64,000 nt of DNA from positions 65,581 through 129,580 of the forward strand of contig JANYES010000011.1 in assembly GCA_025362975.1 (NCBI GenBank), read 5' to 3'. Made by a program: the position numbers and the translations under genes. The notes beneath the pieces were generated by a model. The model searched no databases. It saw nothing but the letters and a program-made list of their open reading frames with translations, and was not told where the DNA came from. The DNA comes from Alphaproteobacteria bacterium (GTDB lineage Bacteria; Pseudomonadota; Alphaproteobacteria; Rickettsiales; SXRF01). The stretch's first letter is position 1. Each line of letters begins with the position of its first letter. Shown in pieces: positions 2,365-49,544 of the stretch.

Positions 2365-3447
2365 ATGACCGACACCAACACCTTACGCAGCCAGGCGCTC
2401 AGCGCCATCGAACATTGCGATTCCTCGGCCACGCTTGAGGAACAGCGCGTCGCCCTGCTCGGCAAAAAAGGCGCCATCACCGAAGCGTTGAAAACACTGG
2501 GCGCGGCCGATGCGGATACCCGCAAAACGCTGGGGGCGACGCTTAACCAGATCAAGCAAGAACTGGCGGAAGCCATTGATAGCAAGAAGGCACAGATCGC
2601 TGCTGTTGAACTTAACGCCCGGCTGGCGTCTGAAAAAATCGACGTCACCCTGCCCTCGCGCCCAGAAATTCGCGGCAGCATCCACCCCGTCACTCAGGTG
2701 ATTGAAGAGATTACGGCGATTTTTGCCGATATGGGATTTGCGGTGGCCGAAGGCCCGGATATCGAAGACGATGCGCATAATTTCGACGCGCTGAACATTC
2801 CCGAATCGCACCCGGCGCGGCAGATGCACGATACGTTTTATTTGCAGGGTAATGGCGACGGCAAGACGCTGCTTCGCACGCACACGTCGCCGGTGCAGAT
2901 TCGCACTATGACGGGAGGCCAGAAAGATAATAGCGGGCCGCCCTTCCGCTTTATCGCGCCGGGTTCTACCTATCGCTGCGATTCGGATTTGACGCATACG
3001 CCGATGTTCCACCAGGTGGAAGGGTTTGTGATCGATAAGGACATCCATATGGGGCATCTCAAGGGTTGCCTGATTGAGTTTTTGAAAGCGTTTTTTGAAC
3101 TCGACGAAGTGCCGGTGCGGTTTCGCCCGAGCTTTTTCCCGTTTACGGAGCCTTCAGCGGAAGTCGATATCGGCTGCAAGCGCAGCAAGGATGAGCTGAA
3201 AATCGGCGCGGGCAATGACTGGCTGGAAGTGCTGGGTTGCGGCATGGTGCATCCGAATGTGCTCAAGAATTGCGGGCTGGACCCGGATGAGTGGCAGGGT
3301 TTTGCGTTTGGCATGGGGGTTGAGCGTTTAGCCATGTTAAAATATGGGATTCCGGATTTGCGCACGTTCTTCGATAGCGATACGCGCTGGCTGTCGCATT
3401 ACGGGTTCGATGCGCTGAACATTCCTTCTTTGCTAGGTGGTTTATGA
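2365..3447 (+). CDS. pheS: Phenylalanine--tRNA ligase alpha subunit
   Basis: 360 aa. Class II aaRS motifs ...[11 protein letters not shown]..., [42 protein letters not shown]. Confidence 0.95.
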
Positions 3448-3935: not shown

Positions 3936-6334
3936 AATTTACGCTGGGCTGGCTCAAAGAACATCTCGATACGAGTGCGTCGCTGGAAGATATTTCTAAA
4001 ACGCTGACTGCTATCGGGCTGGAAGTGGAAGGCATTGCCGACCGCTCGGAAGCGTTGAAGGCGTTTACGGTGGCGAAGATTTTGCAGGCGGAAAAGCATC
4101 CTGAGGCGGATAAGCTGCGCGTGTGCAAGGTTGAAAGCGATGTGGGCGAGTTGCAGATCGTGTGCGGGGCGCCCAATGCCCGCGCGGGGATTTATGTGGT
4201 GCTGGCCAAGGAAGGCGCGCATATTCCTGGCAACGGCATGGTCATCAAGAAAACCAAAATCCGCAACGTCGAAAGCAACGGCATGCTGTGTTCGCTGGAA
4301 GAGCTGGCGTTGCCGGGCGACAGCGCGGGGATTATTGAACTTCCTGAAGGCTCGAAAATCGGTGCGCTGGCAGCGAATGCGCTCGGGCTTTCCGACCCGG
4401 TGATTGAAATTGCGATTACGCCGAATCGCGCGGATTGCCTTGGAGTTTACGGGGTTGCGCGCGATCTTGCGGCGGCGGGGCTTGGCACGTTGAAAGCGTT
4501 GCCGGATGTGGCGGGGATTAAAGGCAGCTTTGCATCGCCAGTTGGGGTGAGCATTGCCGACAATGCGAAATGCCTGCAATTCATTGGCTGCGCGATTACC
4601 GGCGTAAAGAATGGGCCTAGCCCGGAGTGGTTGCGCAAGCGCCTTGAAGCAATTGGCCAGCGCCCGATTTCAGCGCTTGTCGATATTACGAATTACATCA
4701 CGTTCGATCTTGGCCGTCCGCTGCATGTGTATGATATGGCGAAATTGCAGGGCGGTTTGACGGTGCGCGACGCGCGCGACGGCGAAACGCTGAAGGCGCT
4801 TAACGGCAAGGATTACAGCTTGAGCGCGGGCATGACGGTGATTGCAGATAGCGCGCAGGCGCTGGCGATTGGCGGGATTATCGGCGGGGAAGCGAGCGGT
4901 TGCAGCGAGGCGACGACGGATGTGTTTCTGGAAGTGGCGTTGTTTGAGCCTGTTTCGGTGGCCAAAACCGGGCGCGGACTGATGATCGATTCCGATGCGC
5001 GTTATCGTTTTGAACGCGGCGTGGACGTAGGTTTTGTGGAAACGGGCGCGAAGCTTGCCGTTGCCATGATTGAGAAACTGTGCGGCGGGAAGCATAGCGA
5101 ACTGGTGATTGCGGGTGCTGCGCCGGATATTACGCGCAGCATTCATTTGCGCGCGGAACGCGTTAAAACGCTGGGGGGGGTGGATATTTCGCTGGATAGG
5201 ATTCGGCGTATTCTGGAGGATCTTGGGTTTACTTGCACGGCGGTGGCCGATGCGTGGGACGTGACGCCGCCGTCGTGGCGCGGGGATGTGGAAGGCGAAG
5301 CCGACCTCGTGGAAGAAATTTTGCGCATTCATGGCTATGAGAATATTCCGACTACACCGTTGCCGAAATTGGCGAGCATCGCTAAACCGGCGCTTAATGC
5401 GGCGCAGAGGCGTGTGCACCTGACGCGCAGGACGCTTGCGGCGCGCGGAATGATGGAAGCGTGCACGTGGTCGTTTTTGCCGGAGGCACAGGCGATTTTG
5501 TTCGGGCATAGCAATCCGAAATTGAAGCTGCTGAACCCGATCAGCGCCGATCTGGATACGATGCGCCCTTCCCTGCTGCCGAACTTGCTGGAAGCGGCGC
5601 GCAAGAACGCGTTTCGTGGGTTTAAGACAAATAACCTGTTTGAGGTGGGCTTGCAGTTTACCGATATTACGCCGACGGGCCAACGCATGGTGGCCACGGG
5701 GTTGCGCGTGGGGCAGCCGCAGGAAAATAAGTATACGGGGAATTTGTTCCAGCATTCTGAGCGCAGCTATGACGCATTTGACGCGAAGGCTGATGCGCTG
5801 GCGATTTTACAGGCGCTGGGGCTGAATAAATGCGAGATTACCGCGCAGGTGCCTTCGTGGTATCATCCGGGGCGCTCGGGTGTGCTGACGTTGGGTGGGA
5901 AGATTATCCTCGGGTATTTCGGCGAGCTGCATCCGGGCTTGCTGCCGATTTTTGAGATCGACGGTACGGCGGTGGCGTTTGAGTTGTTCCTTGATGCGGT
6001 GCCGGTGCCGCGGGCGAAAAGCAAAGCGCGGGCTGCGCTGAAACCTTCGGATTTCCAGGCGGTGGAGCGCGATTTCGCGTTTATCGTGCCGGAGACGGTC
6101 AATGCGGCGGACATGGTGAAAATCGTGGCGCAGGTGGATAAGCATCTGATTACCGATATCGCGATTTTTGACGTGTATGTCGGCAAGGGCGTGGATGAGG
6201 GCAAAAAATCCGTCGCCATTAAAGTGACGATGCAGGCCAGTGACCGCACGCTTTCCGAGCAGGATATCACCACCGTGAGTGCCGCCATCGTTGCCAGCGC
6301 TGCCAAGAGTTTCGGCGGCCAGCTGCGCCAGTGA
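3932..6334 (+). CDS. pheT: Phenylalanine--tRNA ligase beta subunit
   Basis: 800 aa. N-terminus [14 protein letters not shown], tRNA-binding domain (AEKHPEADKLRVCKV), B3/4 and B5 regions, C-terminal FDVY...K(S)VA... anticodon-binding-like domain. Confidence 0.95.
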   Translation: MKFTLGWLKEHLDTSASLEDISKTLTAIGLEVEGIADRSEALKAFTVAKILQAEKHPEADKLRVCKVESDVGELQIVCGAPNARAGIYVVLAKEGAHIPGNGMVIKKTKIRNVESNGMLCSLEELALPGDSAGIIELPEGSKIGALAANALGLSDPVIEIAITPNRADCLGVYGVARDLAAAGLGTLKALPDVAGIKGSFASPVGVSIADNAKCLQFIGCAITGVKNGPSPEWLRKRLEAIGQRPISALVDITNYITFDLGRPLHVYDMAKLQGGLTVRDARDGETLKALNGKDYSLSAGMTVIADSAQALAIGGIIGGEASGCSEATTDVFLEVALFEPVSVAKTGRGLMIDSDARYRFERGVDVGFVETGAKLAVAMIEKLCGGKHSELVIAGAAPDITRSIHLRAERVKTLGGVDISLDRIRRILEDLGFTCTAVADAWDVTPPSWRGDVEGEADLVEEILRIHGYENIPTTPLPKLASIAKPALNAAQRRVHLTRRTLAARGMMEACTWSFLPEAQAILFGHSNPKLKLLNPISADLDTMRPSLLPNLLEAARKNAFRGFKTNNLFEVGLQFTDITPTGQRMVATGLRVGQPQENKYTGNLFQHSERSYDAFDAKADALAILQALGLNKCEITAQVPSWYHPGRSGVLTLGGKIILGYFGELHPGLLPIFEIDGTAVAFELFLDAVPVPRAKSKARAALKPSDFQAVERDFAFIVPETVNAADMVKIVAQVDKHLITDIAIFDVYVGKGVDEGKKSVAIKVTMQASDRTLSEQDITTVSAAIVASAAKSFGGQLRQ

Positions 6335-34587: not shown

Positions 34588-35556
34588 TTACATCGCGCAC
34601 AGGCAGCGTTTGATACCGGCATTGATCGTGCAGGTCGGGTTGCCGCCGCTGCAATAACCACCGCCGCTAAGGCCCGGGGCGCCGCCGACATTGCCGCCTA
34701 CCGTGCCTGCGCCCGCGCCGGCGGCGTTGAGATTAAACGGCTGCGCCATGATGCTTGAGGGCAGCAGGTAGTTCCCGCGCGCGGAGAAGGTGAGCAAATC
34801 GTCGAACGAATCTGTGGCGTCGCTGGCGTTGAGGGTGATGTCTTTTTGTACGAAAGTGCCTTCGAAACCGGTGGAAACGCCGGTGCTATCGCAGTCGCAG
34901 TTATTCAGCTCGGAGATGTTGGTGGAGCTGACGTTCAGGCGCGTGGTGCCGCCGTTGCGTGGATACGCCCCCTGCCCGTTTAAACCTAAGCTTACGAGTA
35001 CCTGACAGGCAATCGTGGATTTAACCACACCTTCGGCGTTTAGAATCGTCATGCGGGTGGATACGTCATAGGTGGAACTCACCGCGAACGCGCCCGGCAG
35101 TGTCATGTCTCGGCTGACGGCGTAAATAAAGCGCCTGCCCCAACCGTCGAAGGCGTAATCGTCCGGCAGCCCGATGGTTTTGACCGGCAGCATACCTTCG
35201 CGCGCATCCTGCGGGCCGAGGGACGGAGTCTGGCTGAAATTGGAAGTTGGCGCGCCGCCGGTGCAACTGCCGGGATTAGCGGCTTCATAGCCGAAATTGA
35301 CCTGATTGATGGCAAGCGTGGCGTCGGCGGGGCATGGCAAGCGATTAAACGCGAGGCGGTATTCGTAAAGCGCTTTCTGGATAGCTTCCATTTTGGCGAC
35401 CGACTGGCGGAACTGGATTTTCTGCAGCGTTGCCGAAAACAGCGCTACCAGCGAAATCGCGACCACGCCCATGATGACCAGAACGATGGTCATTTCAAGC
35501 AGGGTAAACCCTTGGGAATGTGAGCAGCCGCGAGGCTTTGCCATTGAGTGGTCCAT
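34588..35556 (-). CDS. Prepilin-type N-terminal cleavage/methylation-domain protein (long type IV pilin / pseudopilin-like)
   Basis: ...SQG/FTLLEMTIVLVIMGVVAISLVALF is the classic prepilin leader plus hydrophobic helix. About 320 aa, with a Gly-rich then Cys-rich C-terminus (GGGYCSGGNPTCTINAGIKRCLCAM). The start may be ATG 35544. Confidence 0.75.
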   Translation of the reverse strand: MDHSMAKPRGCSHSQGFTLLEMTIVLVIMGVVAISLVALFSATLQKIQFRQSVAKMEAIQKALYEYRLAFNRLPCPADATLAINQVNFGYEAANPGSCTGGAPTSNFSQTPSLGPQDAREGMLPVKTIGLPDDYAFDGWGRRFIYAVSRDMTLPGAFAVSSTYDVSTRMTILNAEGVVKSTIACQVLVSLGLNGQGAYPRNGGTTRLNVSSTNISELNNCDCDSTGVSTGFEGTFVQKDITLNASDATDSFDDLLTFSARGNYLLPSSIMAQPFNLNAAGAGAGTVGGNVGGAPGLSGGGYCSGGNPTCTINAGIKRCLCAM

Positions 35557-37075: not shown

Positions 37076-37531
37076 TTATTTCTCTTCATCAGGCAGCGGC
37101 ACTCGGCTGGAGTGCTGGTCGACGATCAGCCATTTGCCGCCTTCGAGGTTATAGACGAAGGTGTAGCGGGCGGGGATGTTGATGGGTTCGCCGTCTTGCG
37201 TATAGCTTAAATCGTAGCGGCCGTTGACGACGGCGACGTTGCCGAAGAGGCGCACCTGACTGCTTTTGATATCGACTTTGATGTCCGGGTTCGGGACGAC
37301 TTTTTTGAAGTAACCCTTGATCTGGTCACGCTTGGTCATCGGTTCCTGCGCGAAGGTAGAAATCATGACGGCGTTTTTGTCGTAGAGCTTCATGATGACG
37401 TCGACATTGGCGCTTTCGATGGCGGCTTTCCAGTCGGTGAGCGCTTTATCGACGCTGGGCTGATCGGCGGCGAATGCGGGGGACGTGAGGAGCAGGAACG
37501 TGAGAGCTAGGATTTTAGTGATGGACTTCAT
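37076..37531 (-). CDS. Secreted NTF2-like (SnoaL/DUF4440, SgcJ/EcaC-type) protein
   Basis: From ATG 37531 (AGGAG upstream). Signal peptide MKSITKILALTFLLLTSPAFA. ...WKAAIESANVDVIMKLYDKNAVM...GNVAVVNGRY...ARYTFVY..EGGKWLIVDQHSSRVP fits the NTF2-like pattern. Confidence 0.6.
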   Translation of the reverse strand: MKSITKILALTFLLLTSPAFAADQPSVDKALTDWKAAIESANVDVIMKLYDKNAVMISTFAQEPMTKRDQIKGYFKKVVPNPDIKVDIKSSQVRLFGNVAVVNGRYDLSYTQDGEPINIPARYTFVYNLEGGKWLIVDQHSSRVPLPDEEK

Positions 37532-38900: not shown

Positions 38901-39347
38901 TTATTTACCGCCATTGAAAGAGGCCGTGCAATGCGGGTTTTTAAACGCATTGACGTTGACTGAGGTTTGAATTTTATGGCTGGTGAGCAGTTCGGCGAGT
39001 TTCATGGCGTTTTCGGTGTTTTCGACCTGATAGTTGCCACCGCCGTTTAACATGAAGCCCGCCTCCGGCGCATCGTTGTCGTAGTTCACCAGCTGCGGGT
39101 TGATGGAATAGTTCCAGCTTTGTGCAATGATTCTGATGCCCGCTTCGGAGGCGATGGCACCCAGCTGTTTTACCTTGTCGTCGAATTTCTTTTTGCTTTC
39201 GACATAGGTTTTGCCGATCACGTTGATGTTGGGGCTGATCGTGACGTTTTCCTGAAGGAAACATTCGGTCGACGGGTCTTTCTTATCCGCCGCGAAAGCG
39301 GGGGTGACCGCCAGCGACATCAAGCATACCAAAATCGTTTTCTTCAT
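38901..39347 (-). CDS. Secreted hypothetical protein between pdhB and pdhC
   Basis: 148 aa. Signal peptide MKKTILVCLMSLAVTPAFA. No family recognised. Confidence 0.55.
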   Translation of the reverse strand: MKKTILVCLMSLAVTPAFAADKKDPSTECFLQENVTISPNINVIGKTYVESKKKFDDKVKQLGAIASEAGIRIIAQSWNYSINPQLVNYDNDAPEAGFMLNGGGNYQVENTENAMKLAELLTSHKIQTSVNVNAFKNPHCTASFNGGK

Positions 39348-39411: not shown

Positions 39412-40401
39412 TTAGGCCGCCTGCTCACGGTAACAGACCTGCTTGACCGCGTCGATGATGTGCTGGGGCTGCGGAAGCGCTAGTTTCTCGAGGTTCGCGG
39501 CATAGGGCAGCGGCACGTCGGCACCGGCGACACGCACAACGGGCGCATCGAGGTAGTCGAACGCCTGCTCCATGATGATCGCCGCGATTTCCGAGCCCAT
39601 GCCCGCAGCCGGCCAGCCTTCTTCGACCGAGACGCAACGGCTGGTTTTTTTGACGGATTCAACGATGGTTGCAGTGTCGAGCGGACGCAGGGTGCGCAAG
39701 TCGATCACCTCGGCGCTGATGCCTTGCTGAGCAAGGATTCCTGCGGCTTGCAAAGCTTTGCCGACCATGATGGAAAACGCCGTGATGGTGACGTCGGTGC
39801 CTTCGCGCACGATGGCGGCTTTGCCGATTTCCATTGGCTCGAGGTTATCAGGCACATCGAAGCTCTGGCCGTAGAGCATTTCGTTTTCAAGGAAGATGAC
39901 CGGATTGGGGTCGCGGATAGCGGCTTTAAGCAGGCCTTTGGCGCTTGCCGCGTCGTAGGGCGCTATGACTTTCAATCCCGGGACGTGGGCGTACCAGCTG
40001 GCGTAGCACTGGGAATGCTGGGCGCCGACGCGGGATGCCGCGCCGTTGGGCCCGCGGAAGACGATGGGGCAGCGAATCTGGCCGCCGGACATGTAGTTGG
40101 TTTTAGCGGCGGAGTTGATGAGATGGTCCATCGCCTGCATGGCGAAGTTGAAGGTCATGAACTCGACGATGGGTTTCAAGCCCATCATGGCCGCGCCCAC
40201 GCCGAGGCCGGCGAAACCGTGCTCGGTGATCGGCGTATCGACGATGCGCTCGGGGCCGAATTCGGCGAGCAGGCCTTCGGTCACCTTGTAGGCGCCCTGG
40301 TATTCCGCGACTTCTTCGCCCATGACGAAGACTTCTTTGTCACGGCGCATTTCTTCGGCCATAGCGTCACGTAGTGCGACTCGAACAGTTTGATTAGCCA
40401 T
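39412..40401 (-). CDS. pdhB: Pyruvate dehydrogenase E1 beta subunit
   Basis: 329 aa. ...[20 protein letters not shown]...[16 protein letters not shown].... Strong AGGAG 6 nt upstream. No N-terminal lipoyl domain. Confidence 0.9.
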
Positions 40402-40412
40402 ATGTATCTCCT

Positions 40413-40916
40413 TTATTTAACTCTTTCGATTTTCTTTGGGCATGAGCGGGGCTTGAAGGTGAAGCACTGCTCGCCGTTTTTGTAATCTTTCAGTTCCTCG
40501 GGCAGGTTTTCCGCATTGTTGTAGACGCCATCGTTGGCCCGGAAAGCCAGCGTCGCGCACATCGTGTAGGATTCGCTGCCTTGGGCTTCGTAGCGATAGT
40601 TATCAAATTTTTCCTGCGGGGCGAGCTGCCAGCTGCTGCAATTCAAACCGCTGGCATTGCAGTATTTGCCGGTATGGTTGTTGTTATTGAGGTAATCGAC
40701 CAGCACCTGCTGGTTTTCAGGGAAACTGCCTTCATGCTCGCAGGCATATTGCTGCGCAAAGCAGGCCATGCAGCTCATAGCGATGTTTTTTTGCTTATCC
40801 TCAAGCATTGCCCGCCCTTTTCCCGGCGTGCCGACCAGCGCAAAACCCGAGATCACGAGCGCTGCCAACAGCGCCGATGAGGTGTAAAGCACCGTTTTTT
40901 TTGAGTCAAAGCTCAC
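40413..40916 (-). CDS. Membrane-anchored Cys-rich hypothetical protein (cassette gene 6)
   Basis: GTG 40916 overlaps the upstream TGA (GTGA). N-terminal TM segment [22 protein letters not shown], followed by about 130 aa with 8 Cys. 167 aa. The start is inferred. Confidence 0.45.
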
Positions 40917-41572
40917 GCTTTTTTCTCCATGCTGCCGGTTTCGCAGCGGAAGTAATAATATAAGCCCGCCCACGTGACGCCGCAGACCAGCATTTTCAGG
41001 ATAAAGCGCAAGGAAAGCTCAACGCTGAGGAAATAATACACGAACAGGATGACGTCGAGCAGCATCACGGCGGCGGCGCAAAGGAAAATAAGGTAAATCA
41101 GTTTCAGGCGAATCACCGGCACGCTCTGGTTGCCGAGGCTATAGGTGCGGCGTATCATTCGGCTGGACACGATCGTCAGCGGCGCGCAGGTCATGATCAT
41201 GGCAAGATGCGTGCGGATTGCTTCGGCAATATTGCGCCCGATGATATTGTTGCTTCCATAAAGCCCCTGGCCTGAATGGCCCATTGCATCCGGCAGGTAG
41301 TAGTCGAGGAAGGTGAAGATCATAGAATCCGACGCCCAGATTGTGAGCAGCAGGACAAGGAAGAAGAACAGATTAAGCGCGGTATAGCGCGGCGAAACGT
41401 AGATGCGCGGTTTGGGCACGGGTACGGGAAACGCTACGTCGGCGTACTGGGTCCAGAAGCTGTTGAGCTGTTCTTCCGGCCAGCCTGCTTCGCGCAGGGC
41501 CATGTGCGTTTCGGCGCGGGTTTTGCCAGCGCGGAAGGCTTCTTTAGCGAAATCTACGAGGAACTGGGACAT
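40913..41572 (-). CDS. Polytopic membrane hypothetical protein (cassette gene 5)
   Basis: 219 aa. Soluble N-terminal helix pair (...RAETHMALREAGWPEEQLNSFW) followed by about 4 TM segments. Confidence 0.55.
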   Translation of the reverse strand: MSQFLVDFAKEAFRAGKTRAETHMALREAGWPEEQLNSFWTQYADVAFPVPVPKPRIYVSPRYTALNLFFFLVLLLTIWASDSMIFTFLDYYLPDAMGHSGQGLYGSNNIIGRNIAEAIRTHLAMIMTCAPLTIVSSRMIRRTYSLGNQSVPVIRLKLIYLIFLCAAAVMLLDVILFVYYFLSVELSLRFILKMLVCGVTWAGLYYYFRCETGSMEKKA

Positions 41573-41576
41573 AGAA

Positions 41577-41702
41577 CTACCTGCTCATCACGTTATAACA
41601 ATCGCGGACATAACCGCTGACGCCGTCGGGATGGTCATTCGGGCCGATATAGCAACAGCCGGTGACCATCAGCAATCCAAATACGATCAGGAATTTGTTC
41701 AT
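41577..41702 (-). CDS. 41-aa putative lipoprotein (cassette gene 4)
   Basis: Read by hand: MNKFLIVFGLLMVTGCCYIGPNDHPDGVSGYVRDCYNVMSR*. Lipobox V-T-G-C. Its ATG overlaps the upstream TGA (ATGA at 41699-41702). The stop lies 4 nt before the next ATG. Confidence 0.45.
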   Translation of the reverse strand: MNKFLIVFGLLMVTGCCYIGPNDHPDGVSGYVRDCYNVMSR

Positions 41703-42358
41703 GCCGCCCTGCCCTTGCCTGCTTCATGCTGGCTTGCGAAGGCGAGGACGCCTGCGGGAATGGTGATTTTGACTTTTTCCGTGCCGTTTTCACCGCGTCC
41801 GTGTTTGATGTGGATATCGCGGGCGATTAGCTCGGCATCTACGGGATCAGCTTCGCCGTTACAGGCAATTGCGTAAATCTGCAGCAGCATCGAAAGCGTT
41901 TCCTGACCCTGCCCTTCGCGAAATACTTTGGATACGACGTTGTCGCCAGAGGGTTTCCAGCCATCGAATAACCGGCGGTGCAGCGCGTCGAGTTCCAGCT
42001 CGACCAAGTGTTTGGGGTCGGGAATGTTATCGTCGCTGAACTGCATGTCATTCATTTTTTTATCCATACGGCGCGTCGCTTTTTCAAGCAGGGCTTCGGC
42101 GGCATGGTAGCGCATGCCGTCGCGGGCGGTGTCGGTGAGGTCGGCTTCGGTCAGGTCCTCTGGAATGGTTTCGCGGAATAAATGCGTGGACGCATTTTGG
42201 CCTGCGGTGATGGTGCGGTGGGCGTCTCTGGCGATTTCGCGGTAGGCTTTTTTCGTGAGTCCCGGCTGGTGGAGGCGATCGAGGATTTCGCGCGCGAGCG
42301 AGAACACGCCGGTGGACGGCGGATTATCTCGAAGCTGATCAATCGCCGCCAGTGCCAT
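41699..42358 (-). CDS. Soluble hypothetical protein (cassette gene 3)
   Basis: 219 aa, no signal peptide or TM segment, no motif recognised. Starts 2 nt after the upstream stop. Confidence 0.55.
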   Translation of the reverse strand: MALAAIDQLRDNPPSTGVFSLAREILDRLHQPGLTKKAYREIARDAHRTITAGQNASTHLFRETIPEDLTEADLTDTARDGMRYHAAEALLEKATRRMDKKMNDMQFSDDNIPDPKHLVELELDALHRRLFDGWKPSGDNVVSKVFREGQGQETLSMLLQIYAIACNGEADPVDAELIARDIHIKHGRGENGTEKVKITIPAGVLAFASQHEAGKGRAA

Positions 42359-42360
42359 CG

Positions 42361-43068
42361 TCAGCCCCTTGCACTGCTCTTGAGATTAGATTCCATCGTC
42401 TGCTCGAAATCGACCATCTGGCTCAGGAATTCGCGCTTCATGACAATCGTGTGATCGTTAGGCTGCGGCAGGAAGGACCGCTTGATCTTTTCATCGCTCA
42501 GGTTGGCGGCCATTGCCATGCAGCAGAACAGGTGGCGTATGCGGTCGCACTCATCTTCGCTGGCGAAGGTTTTTAAGACGGCATCCTTGCTGCCGCGTTT
42601 GTCTTTCCAGTTGGCGAACATCTGGATTTCCATCGCGTCGAGCGCGATCATGGGTGCCCGGCTGCTGAACGTGTCGACATCGAATGTGCCGAAGCGAACG
42701 GCGATGTTGCTGATATCGTCCTGCGAACCGAGCAGCAATGCATTCGGATTTTCGGATTCCACGCCGCGCTCCAGCGGGTTGTACGCGTAAAAAAGCGCCG
42801 AGCACATAAAACCACGCACACCATCAATCACGCGCTCGCGGTCGATATCTACTTCCGGATGCGACACCTGTACGATGAGGTCGAGGCCAGGGAAGTTCTG
42901 TTTGGGGTCGAGAGGAGTATCCTGATCATCGTCAATCTTGATCGGGTTTAGCGGAATCGTAACGTCGGGAAGAACGGTTTTGCCTTTCGCTTTAGCCTGC
43001 ACTTTGACGCGCTCGGCAACTTCGGCGACTTCCTTCATTTCTTCTTTGGCGAGTTCAAAAAGCTGCAT
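42361..43068 (-). CDS. Soluble acidic hypothetical protein (cassette gene 2)
   Basis: 235 aa, no signal peptide or TM segment, no motif recognised. Starts 6 nt after the upstream stop. Confidence 0.55.
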   Translation of the reverse strand: MQLFELAKEEMKEVAEVAERVKVQAKAKGKTVLPDVTIPLNPIKIDDDQDTPLDPKQNFPGLDLIVQVSHPEVDIDRERVIDGVRGFMCSALFYAYNPLERGVESENPNALLLGSQDDISNIAVRFGTFDVDTFSSRAPMIALDAMEIQMFANWKDKRGSKDAVLKTFASEDECDRIRHLFCCMAMAANLSDEKIKRSFLPQPNDHTIVMKREFLSQMVDFEQTMESNLKSSARG

Positions 43069-43074
43069 AACGAC

Positions 43075-43449
43075 TCAGGGTTTGACGCGGGTTAAATTGT
43101 GGGCGCCCATGCCGGGGAAATCCATAAGCATTGAATCCCTGTCCTTGAGGAACAGCATCAGACCGCCTTTTTTCTTGCCTTTATCGGCATCGAAATCCAC
43201 TTCGTAACTATCCCCTTTGTCGCTATGGCCGAGGGGTTTGTAGCTGACTGCGAAGACGTTCGGCTGCACCAGCAGCGCGCCTTTATCGTCGGTGGGCGTG
43301 GAGGACAGCGTGGTGGGCGTGAATTCGGTGACCATGTGTTTGCCGTTTGGCAAGGTTTCGGTCCACCTGCCGAGAACTGGGCTATCGTCCGCAAATGCGA
43401 CGACGGGCAGCAACACTAAAAACGCGGCGAGCAGCGGTTTGATGCGCAT
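43075..43449 (-). CDS. Small secreted hypothetical protein (cassette gene 1)
   Basis: 124 aa. Signal peptide MRIKPLLAAFLVLLPVVAFA. Starts 3 nt after the pdhA stop. Confidence 0.55.
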   Translation of the reverse strand: MRIKPLLAAFLVLLPVVAFADDSPVLGRWTETLPNGKHMVTEFTPTTLSSTPTDDKGALLVQPNVFAVSYKPLGHSDKGDSYEVDFDADKGKKKGGLMLFLKDRDSMLMDFPGMGAHNLTRVKP

Positions 43450-43452
43450 CGC

Positions 43453-44469
43453 TTATACCAGCACGTCGGTCCAGAGTTCCGATTCCGGCGGTTCGGGCGA
43501 TTCCTGCGCGAATTCGGCGGCGGCATTGACAACTTCCTTGATTTCTTTTTCGAGGACTTTGATGGTGTCTTCGGTGAAAATACCGTCTTTAATCATGCGG
43601 GCTTTGAGGCCGTCGATCGGGTCATGGTGTTCTTTGTAGCCCTCGACTTCTTCTTTCGAGCGGTATTTTGCCGGGTCGGACATTGAGTGGCCGCGATAGC
43701 GGTAGGTTTTCATTTCCAGCAGGAAGGGGCCGTTGCCTTCGCGCACGTGTTTCACGGCTTCGATGCCGGCTTCGCGCACGGCGAGGACGTCCATGCCGTC
43801 AACCTGTTTCCCGGGTATGCCGAAGCCTTCGCCGCGGCGGAAGAGTTCGGTGGTGGAGCTGCTGCGCTTTACCGATGTTCCCATTGCATATTCGTTGTTT
43901 TCGATGATGTAGATCACCGGGAGTTTCCACAGGCTCGCCATGTTGAAGGCTTCGTAAACCTGCCCTTGGTTGACCGAGCCGTCACCGAAATAGACGAGGC
44001 TGAGGGCGCCGTTCTTGCGGTATTTATGCGCGAACGCAATGCCGGTGCCCAGCGGCACCTGCGCGCCGACGATGCCGTGGCCGCCGTAGAAATGCTTGTC
44101 GGTCGAGAACATGTGCATCGAGCCGCCCTTGCCTTTGGAGAAACCGCCGATGCGGCCGGTGAGTTCGGCCATGATGCCTTTGGGGTCCATGCCGCAGGCG
44201 AGCATGTGCGCGTGATCGCGGTAGGAGGTGATGACGGCGTCATTGGGGGTCACGCAGTCCTGCATTCCGACGACGACGGCTTCCTGGCCAATGTACAGAT
44301 GGCAGAAACCGCCGATGAGGCCCATGCCGTATAACTGGCCCGCTTTTTCTTCGAAACGGCGAATCATGAGCATGTCTTTGTACAGCTTGATCTGCAATTC
44401 TTTGCTCACGCCCTGTGGGGCGGATTTGGCCGTTTCTTCGGGCATTTTTTTGGTCGTGACTTTAGACAT
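43453..44469 (-). CDS. pdhA: Pyruvate dehydrogenase E1 alpha subunit
   Basis: 338 aa. ...MLMIRRFEEKAGQLYGMGLIGGFCHLYIGQEA.... ThDP motif ...GDGSVNQGQVYEAFNMASLWKLPVIYIIENN..., YRYRGHSMSDP. Confidence 0.95.
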   Translation of the reverse strand: MSKVTTKKMPEETAKSAPQGVSKELQIKLYKDMLMIRRFEEKAGQLYGMGLIGGFCHLYIGQEAVVVGMQDCVTPNDAVITSYRDHAHMLACGMDPKGIMAELTGRIGGFSKGKGGSMHMFSTDKHFYGGHGIVGAQVPLGTGIAFAHKYRKNGALSLVYFGDGSVNQGQVYEAFNMASLWKLPVIYIIENNEYAMGTSVKRSSSTTELFRRGEGFGIPGKQVDGMDVLAVREAGIEAVKHVREGNGPFLLEMKTYRYRGHSMSDPAKYRSKEEVEGYKEHHDPIDGLKARMIKDGIFTEDTIKVLEKEIKEVVNAAAEFAQESPEPPESELWTDVLV

Positions 44470-47033: not shown

Positions 47034-47111
47034 TGGGGCGAGTGACGGGGGTCGAACCCGCGACCTCCAGAATCACAATCTGGCGCTCTAACCAACTGAG
47101 CTACACCCGCC
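47034..47111 (-). tRNA. tRNA-His (GTG)
   Basis: Folded by hand. G-1 plus acceptor GCGGGTG/CACTCGC, D arm GCTC-AGTTGGTTA-GAGC, anticodon arm CCAGA-TTGTGAT-TCTGG (GTG), T arm GCGGG-TTCGACC-CCCGT, discriminator C, encoded CCA. Confidence 0.9.
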
Positions 47112-47207: not shown

Positions 47208-47705
47208 TTATTTCTTAGCGAAGTGCTTTTTCAGGTGCTTAGCCACGTTGGGCGACACGAACGACGATATATCACCCCCTAAGCGTGCGATTTGTTTCAC
47301 GAAACGCGAGGAAATGAAATGCGTGTCTTCGGATGCGGTCAGGAATACGGTTTCGATGCTGCGGTTCAGGCGCGAGTTCATGCAGGCCATCTGGAATTCG
47401 TATTCGAAATCCGACACGGCGCGCAGGCCGCGAATCACGAGGCAGGCTTTCGACTCCTCGGCAAAGTTCATCAAAAGCCCGGAGAACGACTTTACCTCGA
47501 TGCGCGCGGCGTCCTTACCCAGACGGGCGATATCCTGCTCCACGAGTTTCGCACGCATCTCTAAATCGAACACCGGGGCCTTGCCAGTATCGAGCGCAAC
47601 TCCGACGATGAGTTTATCGACCACATTCAGGCCACGCTTGATGATGTCCATATGGCCGACGGTGATGGGGTCGAACGTGCCCGGATAGATGCCGATGCGT
47701 TTCAT
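47208..47705 (-). CDS. coaD: Phosphopantetheine adenylyltransferase
   Basis: 165 aa. MKRIGIYPGTFDPITVGHMDII... (T/HxGH). ...ISSRFVKQIARLGGDIS.... Confidence 0.95.
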   Translation of the reverse strand: MKRIGIYPGTFDPITVGHMDIIKRGLNVVDKLIVGVALDTGKAPVFDLEMRAKLVEQDIARLGKDAARIEVKSFSGLLMNFAEESKACLVIRGLRAVSDFEYEFQMACMNSRLNRSIETVFLTASEDTHFISSRFVKQIARLGGDISSFVSPNVAKHLKKHFAKK

Positions 47706-47927
47706 GACTGAAGCTAAGCTCCTGTGTTCAATATTTTATTTTCAGTGGCATTATGGCATCGCGCCGAATGATTATAAAGGGGAAAGTTCAGGACTACATA
47801 GGTAAACAAGTGCATGAATGTTAATGTTTAACCCGCTCGTCACGCTAAATTAATAAAAAAATGGTATCTTAATCATTTGGATTTACCTATACTCCAAATC
47901 ATACTCATGAGTCTTATGGAGAGAAAA

Positions 47928-49544
47928 ATGGATGAATTGAAAGCGGTCTACGAACGTGTACATAAGATAGCGCCGAAGCTGTATGAAGACGAAGCCAGCT
48001 TCCGCCAATCGGTTGAATATACATATGGCCAGAAAAATCGCTTTTTCCACGGCATCAACCATTTACTTGAAATGGTGGGGCAGGATGACGCTTTCACCAA
48101 GCAGGCTTATAAAGATTTAGAAGCTTCTTTCAATCAGGCTTACGCCGACAAACCGCTCTCCAGAGATGAAGTGCAATGGCTTAAGGATGTGAACTTCATC
48201 GCCGCGCTCGGCCATGATTTTGAATACCATGTCGACGGCCACGTCAGCAAATCCGGTGAGAAAACCCTGTCGGCTTATGTCGAGCCAACCAACGTGCTGC
48301 CGACGCGCATCAAAGACCAGCTCATCGACGAGAATCACGACCCCATCGCGTGGGCGACGCTGGAAATCTTCGGTTTGAAACCCGGCGAGAATTTGAGCAT
48401 CTTTAATGGGCAGAATGAATTTCTAAGTGCCCTCTTCCTCGCTAAAAAGCTCGAAGAAGCAGGTGTTGAAAAAGCTGTGATCGTCGGAGTGATTGAATCG
48501 GTGGCGGCGACGGTGCCATTCAAGACGCACGATAAATTCCAGGAACTTAAATCCCGCACCGCCAAAGTCGCCAAAGTGCTGAACCTCGGCGAGGACCAGC
48601 AGCGCCTTGTCGATATGCTTTCGGCCAATGCTACATTGCTTGCGAATAAAGACGTCATCAGCTTCGGCGGCGAATTGTTCCAGCGCAACGCAGATCTGAA
48701 GTCACTGATCGCTGAAAATGGCGATAAAGCCGTTGAAAAATTGACGCAGGACATCAGCGCCAAAGATTTAAAGCTCTCTTTCGCTTCCGGCGATCATTTG
48801 ACCACGGAAGAAGGCTCGCCGGAACTACAGCGCGCCACGGTTCCGGGTATAGGCTTCTCGCCGAATGCCATTCTTGAGCCAAGCTTCAAGCGCGTGCGCC
48901 TTGGCAATATGCTTATCGGGCAGGAAAAGGTTTTCCACGGCATGGAAATCGGCAGCGGCGAGACCTCAGCTTACTATCCGCCTGCACCTGTCGTCAGCCT
49001 GATGAATAAAGCTGTCACCAACGCAGATAAAACTGGCTCGATGGACATTTTGGCCCCCGCCTATAAAGCCCGTGTTGCGTCGTTATCACTGGTCAATACC
49101 GTGGGTGCAATCGCGGGTATACAGAAGGCAGATTTGCAGATTTTTGTGCTCGGCATGCAGAACGATCCGTTTATGATGCAGGATGTGCCGATGCCGGAAT
49201 CCAAAGATTTGCACAGGGTTGTTGATGTGCTCAGCGATCGTATTTCGGGCAATAAGAACGACGCCACCAATTCACCGATTGCCGTGAGGTTGATCAAGGG
49301 CGGAGTCCATCAGGAAAAGCTCACTAAGATATTCGACCTTGCAGAAGAGAATTACGGCAAGGGCAATAAGCAGGACCCGAAGGCGTTCCTTGAAGGCATG
49401 AAAAACATCGCCGGTGACGAGCTGATCGACGGGCTTGTGGACGCTGTCGCCCGCACGACGATGAAAAACATGGGCGATAACTTGAAGCAGTCAGGCATCC
49501 AGCCGGAAAGCTTCGCCTCGCGCGCTGCGGCCAGCCGCCGCTAG
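47928..49544 (+). CDS. Large hypothetical protein, possible HD-type metal-dependent phosphohydrolase N-terminal domain
   Basis: Start set at ATG 47928 (GGAGAG upstream). ...KNRFFHGINHLLEMV...(~55 aa)...IAALGHDFEYHVDGH resembles an H...HD motif pair. 538 aa. By eye it is more AT-rich than the neighbouring core genes. Confidence 0.5.
   Translation: MDELKAVYERVHKIAPKLYEDEASFRQSVEYTYGQKNRFFHGINHLLEMVGQDDAFTKQAYKDLEASFNQAYADKPLSRDEVQWLKDVNFIAALGHDFEYHVDGHVSKSGEKTLSAYVEPTNVLPTRIKDQLIDENHDPIAWATLEIFGLKPGENLSIFNGQNEFLSALFLAKKLEEAGVEKAVIVGVIESVAATVPFKTHDKFQELKSRTAKVAKVLNLGEDQQRLVDMLSANATLLANKDVISFGGELFQRNADLKSLIAENGDKAVEKLTQDISAKDLKLSFASGDHLTTEEGSPELQRATVPGIGFSPNAILEPSFKRVRLGNMLIGQEKVFHGMEIGSGETSAYYPPAPVVSLMNKAVTNADKTGSMDILAPAYKARVASLSLVNTVGAIAGIQKADLQIFVLGMQNDPFMMQDVPMPESKDLHRVVDVLSDRISGNKNDATNSPIAVRLIKGGVHQEKLTKIFDLAEENYGKGNKQDPKAFLEGMKNIAGDELIDGLVDAVARTTMKNMGDNLKQSGIQPESFASRAAASRR

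Follow-up and report, generated by a model that had tools for sequence, protein, structure and literature searches.

A question raised by this locus is whether six genes lying between pdhA and pdhB, which encode the E1-alpha and E1-beta subunits of pyruvate dehydrogenase (PDH), form one system or are unrelated genes sharing a junction. The locus lies in a window of 64,000 nucleotides (the whole stretch of DNA analysed here), and the original prediction, made from the sequence alone, had read the six genes as a self-contained, envelope-associated module forced into co-expression with a central-metabolism operon. Our analysis gives a different answer: the six genes are probably the contents, at this locus, of a hypervariable accessory-gene slot, and they make up a mosaic of four or more independent units, not one system. 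The features of the locus are as follows.

43453-44469, minus strand: pdhA (E1 alpha of PDH), bounding the slot upstream; TIGR03182, E = 4e-153, and PF00676
43075-43449, minus strand: g1, 124 aa, with a Sec signal peptide (...VVAFA|DD)
42361-43068, minus strand: g2, 235 aa, cytosolic
41699-42358, minus strand: g3, 219 aa, cytosolic
41577-41702, minus strand: g4, 41 aa, a predicted lipoprotein with lipobox VTGC
40913-41572, minus strand: g5, 219 aa, a DUF5671 membrane protein
40413-40916, minus strand: g6, 167 aa, with a GTG start, 8 Cys and an N-terminal anchor
39412-40401, minus strand: pdhB (short-form E1 beta of PDH), bounding the slot downstream; NF006667, E = 3e-178
38901-39347, minus strand: x7, 148 aa, with a signal peptide, between pdhB and pdhC
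37076-37531, minus strand: x8, 151 aa, secreted, SnoaL/DUF4440-like, between pdhC and lpdA

The six open reading frames (ORFs), g1 to g6, fill the pdhA-pdhB interval at window positions 40413-43449, all on the minus strand. The ORF list, the raw sequence and independent gene calls (GCA_043761865.1, JAYUNH010000008.1; Logan assembly of SRR23617210) are concordant and agree exactly with the operon-type junctions that had been described: 3 nt between pdhA and g1, 6 nt between g1 and g2, 2 nt between g2 and g3, an ATGA overlap of g3 and g4, 4 nt between g4 and g5, a GTGA overlap of g5 and g6, and 11 nt with an AGGAG inside between g6 and pdhB. The compartments predicted for the six products were also correct. 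The downstream border is identified as pdhB by NF006667 and NF008854 (both E <= 1e-178); its product matches the long-form model NF008854 at positions 139-464 only and is without the lipoyl domain. The GC3 of g1-g6 (0.66-0.73) follows the host pattern (0.68 +/- 0.06 over 27 long window ORFs), and their GC2 is just 0.35-0.42. A search of the coding strand of the block for internal promoters and terminators found none that was convincing. Since the spacing leaves no room for promoters of their own, transcription reading through from the pdh promoter, together with translational coupling, would express the six genes, and the proposed co-expression with pdh stands as the simplest reading of this anatomy, inferred from the spacing. 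Further downstream, x7 has relatives at the same pdhB-pdhC junction in two genomes (L093, 24% identity; L139, 31%) and matched no family in the family-library searches, and x8 (PF13474, E = 2e-15) is kept at the same pdhC-lpdA junction in L003, L093, L127 and L142 (49-68% identity).

E1-alpha and E1-beta genes had been described as normally adjacent, and this is true in about 87% of 75 other alphaproteobacterial loci, where an apparent gap of 380-560 nt is the PdhB lipoyl domain. At about 10 of these 75 loci (Hyphomonas, Maricaulis and a Xanthobacteraceae MAG among them) the junction has an extra ORF or two, some of which, read from their translations, we take to resemble a MAPEG-type membrane protein or a SnoaL-type protein; insertions at the pdhA-pdhB junction are therefore tolerated in general. 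These loci are like the window in having unrelated genes between pdhA and pdhB, but they hold only one or two each, none related to g1-g6, whereas turnover in the clade studied here is far higher.

To follow this junction among relatives, we compared about 27 related loci of the clade and 12 further contexts of g5. The clade consists of uncultured alphaproteobacteria whose PdhA identity is 73-75% or more and whose short PdhB has no lipoyl domain, and it is marked by the PdhA C-terminal motif PEPPExxLWTD, which is absent only from the basal L145. Across the about 27 clade loci the contents of the slot vary locus by locus, and its length takes values of 22, 36, 125, 149-164, 443-784, 1293, 1709, 2373 and 3064 nt, with upper extremes of >4116 nt and, where the operon is broken, >12 kb; the six genes of the window are the largest complete insert seen. 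The existence of relatives in which pdhA abuts pdhB directly, a point raised with the original prediction, was confirmed in two clade members, L116 (36 nt) and L126 (22 nt), and the slot of L120 holds a palindromic element alone. Other cargo in the relatives' slots comprises GIY-YIG genes, a PFIN/ParB-like gene, MITE-like palindromic repeats, a HicAB pair (in L004 only) and duplicated pdhA 3' ends, which are exact copies of 21 nt in L127 and 23 nt in L123.

If the six genes were one self-contained envelope-associated system with parts acting together, they should travel together. The tight coupling of all six on one strand, the spread of their products over all compartments and the slot of L151, where g2-like, g4, g5 and g6 genes follow in the same order, would fit such a system, but the whole block never recurs: all six families occur together in 0 of about 27 clade loci and 0 of the 12 further g5 contexts, L151 with its four families being the best case. 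In addition, g4 is the lone resident in at least six loci (among them L005, L093, L115, L134 and L139) and sits beside unrelated genes in L004, L007, L125 and L127; the g5-g6 pair is found with none of g1, g2, g3 and g4 in 11 of its 13 contexts; g2 relatives keep different partners and stand without g4-g6 in L003 and L128; and g1 and g3 were found nowhere else. We therefore regard a single system as very unlikely. A lack of co-occurrence in other genomes had been named as something that would refute the proposal; across the loci compared it applies to the block as a whole, and with it falls the notion that the module is self-contained. What survives of the proposal includes an envelope location for g4, g5 and g6; g5 and g6 are a real conserved pair, and the g4-g5-g6 order is repeated in L151. 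It also proved right that the genes fit no described system; the sole family match among the six products is DUF5671 for g5, and a PADLOC search with defence and toxin-antitoxin models matched none of them.

The best-defined unit is the g5-g6 pair. The g5 protein passed the Pfam gathering threshold for PF18920 (DUF5671; 32.3 bits against a cut-off of 28.4, residues 68-194), and its 37 homologs, of about 214 aa, are all annotated PF18920. Its AlphaFold2 model (pLDDT 85) has three short N-terminal helices followed by four long transmembrane helices and gave no meaningful match in a fold search; viral relatives of g5 were not found. In 13 of 13 contexts the DUF5671 gene is followed by a gene of the g6 family (E = 1e-12 to 1e-56), and the g6-family profile matched no other ORF. 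The contexts are the pdhA-pdhB slot in four genomes (the window, L142/143, L145/146 and L151), the rpiB-glyA junction in L144 and L147, the position after the lipoyl synthase gene lipA in L156, the IS-rich L148, four others (L149, L152, L154 and L155) and the Methylosinus trichosporium OB3b plasmid pOB3b2, where the pair lies beside MobA/MobL and the g5 homolog is named 'DUF5671 domain-containing protein' by NCBI; a setting next to arg genes was also seen. The GTG-start g6, whose status as a coding gene had been in doubt, can be aligned from its first residues with 12 partners elsewhere. The g6 family is small, with only 20 representatives among 1.84 billion in an exhaustive search. These data show that g5-g6 is a conserved, portable two-gene cassette that has repeatedly lodged in housekeeping operons, and its two products, one polytopic and the other bitopic, most likely form a small inner-membrane complex. 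The literature searched does not mention DUF5671; to this family, of which g5 and all 37 relatives are members, our results add an obligate, overlap-coupled partner with a putative pilin fold and the lodging within housekeeping operons.

The pilin-fold assignment of this partner draws on three weak lines that agree. The AlphaFold2 model of g6 (pLDDT 85; helices at 5-60, strands at 108-154) had as its best Foldseek match the type IV pilin PilA4 (6xxd_A, E = 0.063, probability 0.89, TM 0.32/0.41), the remaining matches having probabilities <= 0.16; a comparison with PDB profiles gave GspG alone (E = 1.6), aligned at the alpha1-C segment; and T2SSG was the commonest weak Pfam match, in 3 of 22 family members (best E = 0.031, under the cut-off), with no Pfam pilin model above the cut-off in the family. 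The predicted periplasmic domain would thus be disulfide-rich with a type IV pilin or pseudopilin fold. Like type IV pilins and T2SS pseudopilins (Thermus PilA4, PDB 6xxd; GspG, PDB 5wda), g6 is predicted to have a long N-terminal hydrophobic helix running into an amphipathic helix and a small beta-sheet domain closed by a conserved Cys pair, C120-C151, both invariant in the family (g6 numbering). Unlike pilins, it has neither a prepilin leader nor the G-1/F+1/E+5 methylation motif: N_methyl matched neither g6 nor any of 22 family members, and G-F-x-x-x-E does not occur in the family alignments A1-A3. In its place the family has G-[ST]-P-x-x-N-R-x(4)-D, with the invariant residues G29, P31, R35 and D40 all after the hydrophobic helix. 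Its constant partner is the DUF5671 protein, whereas pilins are accompanied by an assembly ATPase, a platform protein or a prepilin peptidase. No gene for an assembly ATPase, platform protein, secretin or prepilin peptidase was found within +/-10 kb in the window, and pilus-type genes are absent from 11 of the 12 other g5-g6 contexts, the exception being L144, where genes for a secretin and an A24 peptidase lie upstream, on the opposite strand. The g6 protein is probably a membrane-retained pilin-fold protein and not a fibre subunit.

The second unit, g4, is the commonest slot resident, with 13 relatives in a family of at least 14 loci including the window. Relatives are found in the slots of L004, L005, L007, L093, L110, L115, L125, L127, L134, L138, L139 and L151, that of L138 being 62% identical. 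The lipobox LMVTG|C fits [LVI][ASTVI][GAS]C, with the Cys invariant in 12 aligned relatives; there is a weak LPAM_1 match (E = 0.13). The pattern C..C...Y..C (lipobox Cys, second Cys, Tyr, third Cys) is invariant in the family (alignment A4), and pN/pS is 0.23 for L005 versus L139, the least saturated pair. Non-conservation had been considered for the 41-aa ORF and the GTG start; it does not apply, because g4 and the GTG start of g6 are both conserved. From its sequence, g4 is predicted to be a micro-lipoprotein particular to the clade, about 25 residues long when mature and with two conserved Cys besides that of the lipobox.

The remaining genes are harder to place. Of the searches proposed for all products, the family search gave DUF5671 for g5 and the Foldseek search a pilin-like match for g6; g1 and g3 had no match in the family libraries or the PDB. 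For g2, a word-indexed search of 5.8 billion proteins retrieved g2 alone and no plasmid match was found, while clear relatives (30-33% identity) are present immediately after pdhA in L003, which has two copies in tandem, in L128 and in L114, and more distant members in L151 (L151_194, leave-one-out E = 3.7e-5) and L138 (L138_180, E = 1.4e-3). When the g2 profile was run against 7,878 six-frame ORFs, the top ten matches were all slot proteins. As judged from these comparisons, g2 represents a fast-evolving, clade-specific family seen only in the pdhA-pdhB slot, in a sampling centred on pdh loci. The g3 protein had no family, PDB or plasmid match, and no confirmed homolog among about 150 fetched loci. 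It aligns with the g2 family in hhalign (P = 0.002, region MFxxWK...F..E), is the best or second-best non-member in every g2 profile run over the 7,878 ORFs (E = 0.1-1.5, below significance), and has the N-terminal motif [ILMV]F.x[AM]x[EQ], which, although defined post hoc, occurs in 10 of 7,878 ORFs, 9 of them slot proteins; g3 is thus probably a very divergent g2 paralog. The g1 protein had no match in Pfam, NCBIfam, PHROG, PADLOC or PDB sequences and no relative among the about 150 fetched loci, a signal-peptide protein at the same position in L003 being unrelated; over these libraries and loci, it is a predicted orphan periplasmic protein. This lack of significant homologs could indicate that g1, g3 or both are chance ORFs or decaying remnants. 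However, their 124 and 219 codons occupy the available intervals completely, with 2-6 nt junctions, their GC3 (0.71 and 0.66) and GC2 (0.40 and 0.42) carry the host coding signature, g1 has a canonical signal peptide, and g3 has an AAGGGG Shine-Dalgarno and both g2-family motifs, which makes it highly improbable that they are not real genes.

Another question is whether the slot residents are functionally tied to their position. The g5-g6 cassette, g4 and the g2 family could be clade-specific PDH or lipoate accessory factors, e.g. a membrane tether or a regulator: g5-g6 occupies the slot in four genomes, the most distant with 73% PdhA identity, and directly follows lipA in L156; neither g4 nor the g2 family was found outside the slot; and PdhB of the clade has lost its lipoyl domain. 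As PDH or lipoate genes adjoin the pair in 5 of its 13 contexts, there could be a functional tie instead of hitch-hiking. However, PDH does not need the slot genes, as seen from the abutting pair in L116 and L126 and the lone palindromic element in L120; moreover, g5-g6 was also found in rpiB-glyA, beside arg genes, in IS-rich surroundings and on plasmid pOB3b2, and the restriction of g4 and g2 to the slot is biased by the sampling. We consider this explanation unlikely. A more specific form, in which the residents link the PDH complex or the metabolism of lipoate with the inner membrane or the envelope, would account for the position of g5-g6 in the slot of four genomes and directly behind lipA in a fifth, and for the confinement of g4 and the g2 family to the slot; it seems to us quite unlikely.

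The mobile traits of the slot could also mean that the block is a recently acquired island, i.e. an integrative element or a cassette array. The insertion scars in L123 and L127, the selfish genes in relatives' slots (GIY-YIG, HicAB, MITE-like palindromes) and the presence of g5-g6 on a mobilizable plasmid and between transposases are in keeping with this, but the block itself shows little of it: there is no integrase or transposase within +/-10 kb, the window has neither a direct repeat nor a second copy of the pdhA end, and the spacers of 2-11 nt are too short for attC-type sites. Furthermore, GC3 is host-like, the divergence of g5 and g6 tracks that of PdhA (PdhA identity 87/84/73% versus g5 60/57/46%), and no viral relatives of g5 and no plasmid matches for g2 or g3 were found. 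A recent island is thus hardly to be expected.

Overall, we favour a slot filled by at least four independent units, which would be the g5-g6 cassette, g4, g2 with probably g3, and g1. Read-through from the pdh promoter and translational coupling would make the slot permissive and constitutively transcribed, a site where genes can land and be retained. The gene order of L151, which is not sister to the window in the PdhA tree (180 residues, no support values), together with the host-like codon composition, points to an old resident set (g2-like, g4, g5 and g6) that may later have been trimmed differently among relatives, although repeated gain may also account for the pattern. Selfish elements, namely HicAB, GIY-YIG, the PFIN/ParB-like gene and MITE-like palindromes, would then have invaded the slot.

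Although no long-standing open question is touched, these findings suggest that a core enzyme operon junction can be used in the long term as an expression platform for unrelated accessory genes with very high turnover among close relatives, which bears on how compact genomes gain and keep promoterless genes and calls for caution in inferring function from operon membership. They also provide three uncharacterised, testable units: the cassette of DUF5671 protein and putative pilin-fold partner, the conserved lipoprotein of about 40 aa and the fast-evolving, slot-specific family. The first is experimentally accessible, because it is carried by a plasmid of the cultivable M. trichosporium OB3b.

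Known kinds of variable junction include integration hotspots, or 'islets', flanked by core genes and, in T4-like phages, free-standing genes for homing endonucleases located between conserved genes. The clade slot resembles them in that one conserved-gene junction varies in presence, absence and content among close relatives, and, like hotspots, it holds GIY-YIG genes, toxin-antitoxin pairs and target-duplication scars. Unlike hotspots, it interrupts an essential operon where the genes for the two subunits of an enzyme meet, and its cargo appears promoterless and translationally coupled, with g4, g5-g6 and the g2 family looking old.

The pdhA-pdhB junction of the window, referred to here as the slot, is filled by six ORFs (g1-g6) located between two genes of unambiguous identity:

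43453-44469, minus strand: pdhA
43075-43449, minus strand: g1, 124 aa
42361-43068, minus strand: g2, 235 aa
41699-42358, minus strand: g3, 219 aa
41577-41702, minus strand: g4, 41 aa
40913-41572, minus strand: g5, 219 aa
40413-40916, minus strand: g6, 167 aa, GTG start
39412-40401, minus strand: pdhB

Going from pdhA to pdhB, spacers of 3, 6 and 2 nt lead up to g3; g3 and g4 overlap by ATGA, 4 nt separate g4 from g5, g5 and g6 overlap by GTGA, and AGGAG lies in the 11 nt before pdhB. The ORF list, the sequence and independent gene calls all agree with this previously reported arrangement of six same-strand ORFs, and g1-g6 were also called independently on NCBI GCA_043761865.1 (JAYUNH010000008.1). 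Because the Logan assembly of SRR23617210 holds a stretch identical to the block, the latter is no assembly artefact. The GC3 of the six genes (0.66-0.73; host, 0.68 +/- 0.06) and their GC2 (0.35-0.42) correspond to the host coding signature. Pattern scans of the coding strand yielded no convincing internal promoter or terminator, and no RNA element was found by Rfam within or near the block.

A PdhA genome scan returned 80 loci, namely, 75 from ordinary Alphaproteobacteria and five with a short PdhB of the window type. The apparent pdhA-pdhB distance in the 75 ordinary loci is ~380-560 nt, because the lipoyl domain of their long PdhB occupies that stretch: most alphaproteobacterial PdhB proteins have 455-480 aa with an N-terminal lipoyl domain, whereas the short form (329 aa) is devoid of this domain and matches only positions 139-464 of NF008854. 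About 10 of the 75 loci carry one or two extra unrelated ORFs between pdhA and pdhB, indicating that insertions at this junction are tolerated beyond the clade of the window, i.e., uncultured alphaproteobacteria with the short PdhB and, except for the basal locus L145, the PdhA C-terminal motif PEPPExxLWTD. These ordinary loci (L008, L009, L028, L034, L043, L053, L056, L063, L072, and L073) have pdhA-pdhB gaps of 803-1377 nt, and some of the extra ORFs look MAPEG-, SnoaL-, DUF3291-, glyoxalase- or Uma2-like by reading their translations alone.

The five short-PdhB loci, with PdhA proteins 80-86% identical, each carry a different insert. As a degenerate DNA pattern, PEPPExxLWTD matched all seven clade loci and none of the 75 others; a metagenome scan with this pattern gave 59 loci, ~19 of which belong to the clade. 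The slot lengths in the clade are 22, 36, 125, 149-164, 443-784, 1293, 1709, 2373, 3064 (window), and >4116 nt, and a broken pdh operon has a slot of >12 kb. The original prediction had pointed to relatives with directly abutting pdhA and pdhB as informative, and such relatives do exist, as the slot is empty in two loci.

Slot content in loci of the clade
L116, L126: nothing
L120: palindromic repeat element only, MITE-like
L005, L093, L115, L134, L139: g4-like lipoprotein alone
L004: g4 and HicA/HicB
L125: g4 and GIY-YIG
L110: g4 and a GIY-YIG remnant
L127: g4 and a PFIN/ParB-like gene
L007: g4 and two 600-aa membrane paralogs
L003, L128: g2 relatives and a 'MEIF...' family protein
L006, L088, L123, L138: other proteins without assigned family

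The 3' end of pdhA is duplicated exactly inside the slot of L123 (23 nt, 3184-3206) and L127 (21 nt, 1533-1553). The duplicated part encodes ...ELWTDV plus the stop codon and closely follows an inserted GIY-YIG gene in L123 and the PFIN/ParB-like gene in L127; these duplicates look like scars left by insertions, by which the end of pdhA is restored. Such a repeat of the pdhA 3' end is absent within the window. MITE-like palindromes of the type GTCATCCCGGCG..GCCGGGATC occur in the slot of L120 (~2690-2795), L095, L110, L125, and L141, and small GIY-YIG genes often adjoin them. Directly after the g4-like lipoprotein, L007 (1105-4729) encodes a polytopic membrane protein of 600 aa, without a Pfam match, in two or more tandem paralogous copies; a third copy begins near 4730.

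The original prediction took g1-g6 as one self-contained envelope-associated module. This view does not hold, because the units are independent and the slot content varies among clade loci. Concerning co-occurrence, four families do recur together in L151, in the window's order (g2-like, g4, g5, g6) with a tiny transmembrane ORF between g4 and g5, but all six do so in none of ~27 clade loci and 12 further g5 contexts. Thus, g4, g5-g6 and g2 are conserved, each as an independent unit, in a variable slot.

Among the six products, the sole Pfam family match was DUF5671 for g5 (32.3 bits versus a cut-off of 28.4), and NCBIfam, PHROG, and PADLOC gave nothing for any of them. A word-indexed search of 5.8 billion proteins with g2 returned the self-match only. 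No match was obtained in PDB sequence searches with g1 and g3 or in plasmid tblastn searches with g2 and g3, and g5 relatives were absent from a viral contig scan. The literature searched contained no mention of DUF5671 or of genes between pdhA and pdhB.

In an alignment of 12 g4 sequences (including g4 itself), the lipobox Cys, a second Cys 1-3 residues on, a Tyr, and a third Cys are all invariant; L115 and L151 hold two further relatives outside this alignment. The pN/pS of the least saturated pair is 0.23. The 41-aa ORF, which had been doubted as a gene, is therefore conserved as coding, and no other slot resident is conserved as well as g4.

For g5, 37 homologs (~214 aa) were found, and the neighbours were checked for ten on their own contigs and one on a plasmid. 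Every checked DUF5671 gene is followed by a gene for 116-169 aa, usually with a 4-nt overlap. All 12 partner genes match the g6-family profile (E = 1e-12 to 1e-56), and the GTG-start g6 aligns with them from its first residues; apart from these partners, none of 7,878 six-frame ORFs matched at E < 1. In an exhaustive HMMER search of 1.84 billion proteins, the g6 family numbered just 20 representatives. Four genomes have the pair at the pdhA-pdhB junction, namely, the window, L142/143 (PdhA 87%), L151 (84%), and L145/146 (73%), and L144 and L147 have it between rpiB and glyA. It directly follows lipA in L156 and is flanked by transposases in L148, whereas its neighbours are arg, restriction-modification or other genes in L149, L152, L154, and L155. 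In Methylosinus trichosporium OB3b, it lies near MobA/MobL on a mobilizable plasmid, pOB3b2 (genes WP_099831986 and WP_157926112). These varied contexts indicate that g5-g6 is a portable cassette, which tends to settle inside housekeeping operons. In the metagenomic contig L156 (168-2219), the pair overlaps the end of the lipoyl synthase gene lipA, a second link to lipoate/PDH metabolism outside the pdh operon.

The AlphaFold2 model of g5 (pLDDT 85) contains three short N-terminal helices and four long transmembrane helices, and Foldseek returned only non-specific helical-bundle matches for it. The g6 model (pLDDT 85, 18-sequence alignment) consists of one helix over residues 5-60, a second, short one, and a small sheet; its only credible Foldseek match is PilA4, a type IV pilin in full length (6xxd_A, E = 0.063, probability 0.89; the rest at most 0.16). 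Against PDB, the g6-family profile matched GspG alone (E = 1.6), with the alignment falling on the alpha1-C segment, and T2SSG is the commonest weak Pfam match of the family. Unlike pilins, g6 has neither a prepilin leader nor E+5, and G-[ST]-P-x-x-N-R-x4-D is conserved after its helix. The likeness would be one of fold, as g6 failed the pilin and pseudopilin tests of leader, sequence family and gene neighbourhood; it is probably a pilin-fold protein kept anchored in the membrane. Just downstream of lpdA (~34588-35556, minus strand), the window also encodes a protein of 322 aa whose Pfam match to N_methyl (prepilin-type) is weak, a point worth noting beside the pilin-like fold of g6.

L128, L114, and L003, the last with two copies in tandem, encode clear relatives of g2. 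When an iterated g2 profile was run against the 7,878 ORFs of all fetched loci, the top ten were exclusively pdhA-pdhB-encoded proteins: g2 orthologs, followed by the ORFs L151_194, L123_181, L138_180, and L123_222, and then g3. The leave-one-out E values against the g2 family were 3.7e-5 for L151_194, 1.4e-3 for L138_180, and 0.045 for L123_181; at E = 2.2, membership of L123_222 was unsupported. The g3 protein gave E = 0.1-1.5 against g2-family profiles, being the best or second-best non-member match, and hhalign aligned it to the family with P = 0.002 (segment MFxxWK...F..E). A motif defined post hoc for the N-terminal 40 residues, [ILMV]F.x[AM]x[EQ], occurs in 10 of the 7,878 ORFs, nine of them slot proteins, including g2 and g3. 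Rank, hhalign P and motif together make it somewhat probable that g3 is a very divergent tandem paralog of g2. The 'MEIF' family (L003, L088, and L128) was rejected as g2 kin, having no hhalign support and a short N-terminal motif alone in common. No g1 relatives were found in Pfam, NCBIfam, PHROG, PADLOC, PDB sequences or the fetched loci, and the signal-peptide protein that L003 encodes at the position of g1 is not similar to it.

In a neighbour-joining PdhA tree (last 180 residues, without support values), the window clusters with L142, which carries g5-g6 only, and with L088, whose slot has a single 'MEIF' gene; L151 falls in another part of the tree, and the basal positions are taken by L145 (g5-g6) and L115 (g4). 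Because this tree, against which loss is read, is short and unsupported, repeated gain of the slot residents is a possible alternative to an ancestral set followed by loss. On the other side, the identities of g5 and g6 drop in parallel with that of PdhA. Both this and the host-like GC3 favour long-standing residents (g2 family, g4, and g5-g6) that would have been differentially lost, with g1 and a g2 duplication gained in this genome.

Two other junctions of the window operon also carry extra genes:

38901-39347, minus strand: x7, a 148-aa signal-peptide protein between pdhB and pdhC
37076-37531, minus strand: x8, a secreted SnoaL/DUF4440-like protein between pdhC and lpdA

Relatives occupy the same junctions in L093 and L139 for x7 (24-31% identity) and in L003, L093, L127, and L142 for x8 (49-68% identity), supporting the view of the whole pdh operon as a platform for accessory genes. 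Further cargo lies at other pdh junctions of L004 (12674-16049) and L142 (8153-12045). Downstream of pdhB, it is either a small membrane protein or a protein of the RDD family; the genes ahead of lpdA include an M24 peptidase and a toxin-antitoxin pair of the nucleotidyltransferase/HEPN (HepT-like) type. Elsewhere in the window, a 555-aa ORF (47877-49544, plus strand), to which the source's gene call gives 545 aa and for which no Pfam match is on record, begins in a low-GC patch (47500-48250; 0.43-0.46 versus 0.55) and adjoins a tRNA gene (47037-47110).

Overall, g1-g6 would owe their expression to read-through from the pdh promoter and to translational coupling. The g5-g6 pair may form an inner-membrane complex with a disulfide-bonded pilin-fold domain facing the periplasm, while g4 would be an independent periplasm-facing lipopeptide, g2 and g3 are predicted to be cytosolic, and g1 periplasmic. 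Tested against known systems, the block is neither an integron nor an island, and it is not a pilus, type II secretion, defence or toxin-antitoxin system. The locus is a clear case of a hypervariable slot embedded in an operon, yielding three definable uncharacterised units, of which g5-g6 is open to experiment in Methylosinus. The nearest concept is that of integration hotspots between core genes, from which the block would differ in being intra-operonic and translationally coupled; free-standing homing-endonuclease insertion between conserved genes is also near, and the block may represent an unusual intra-operonic form of it.
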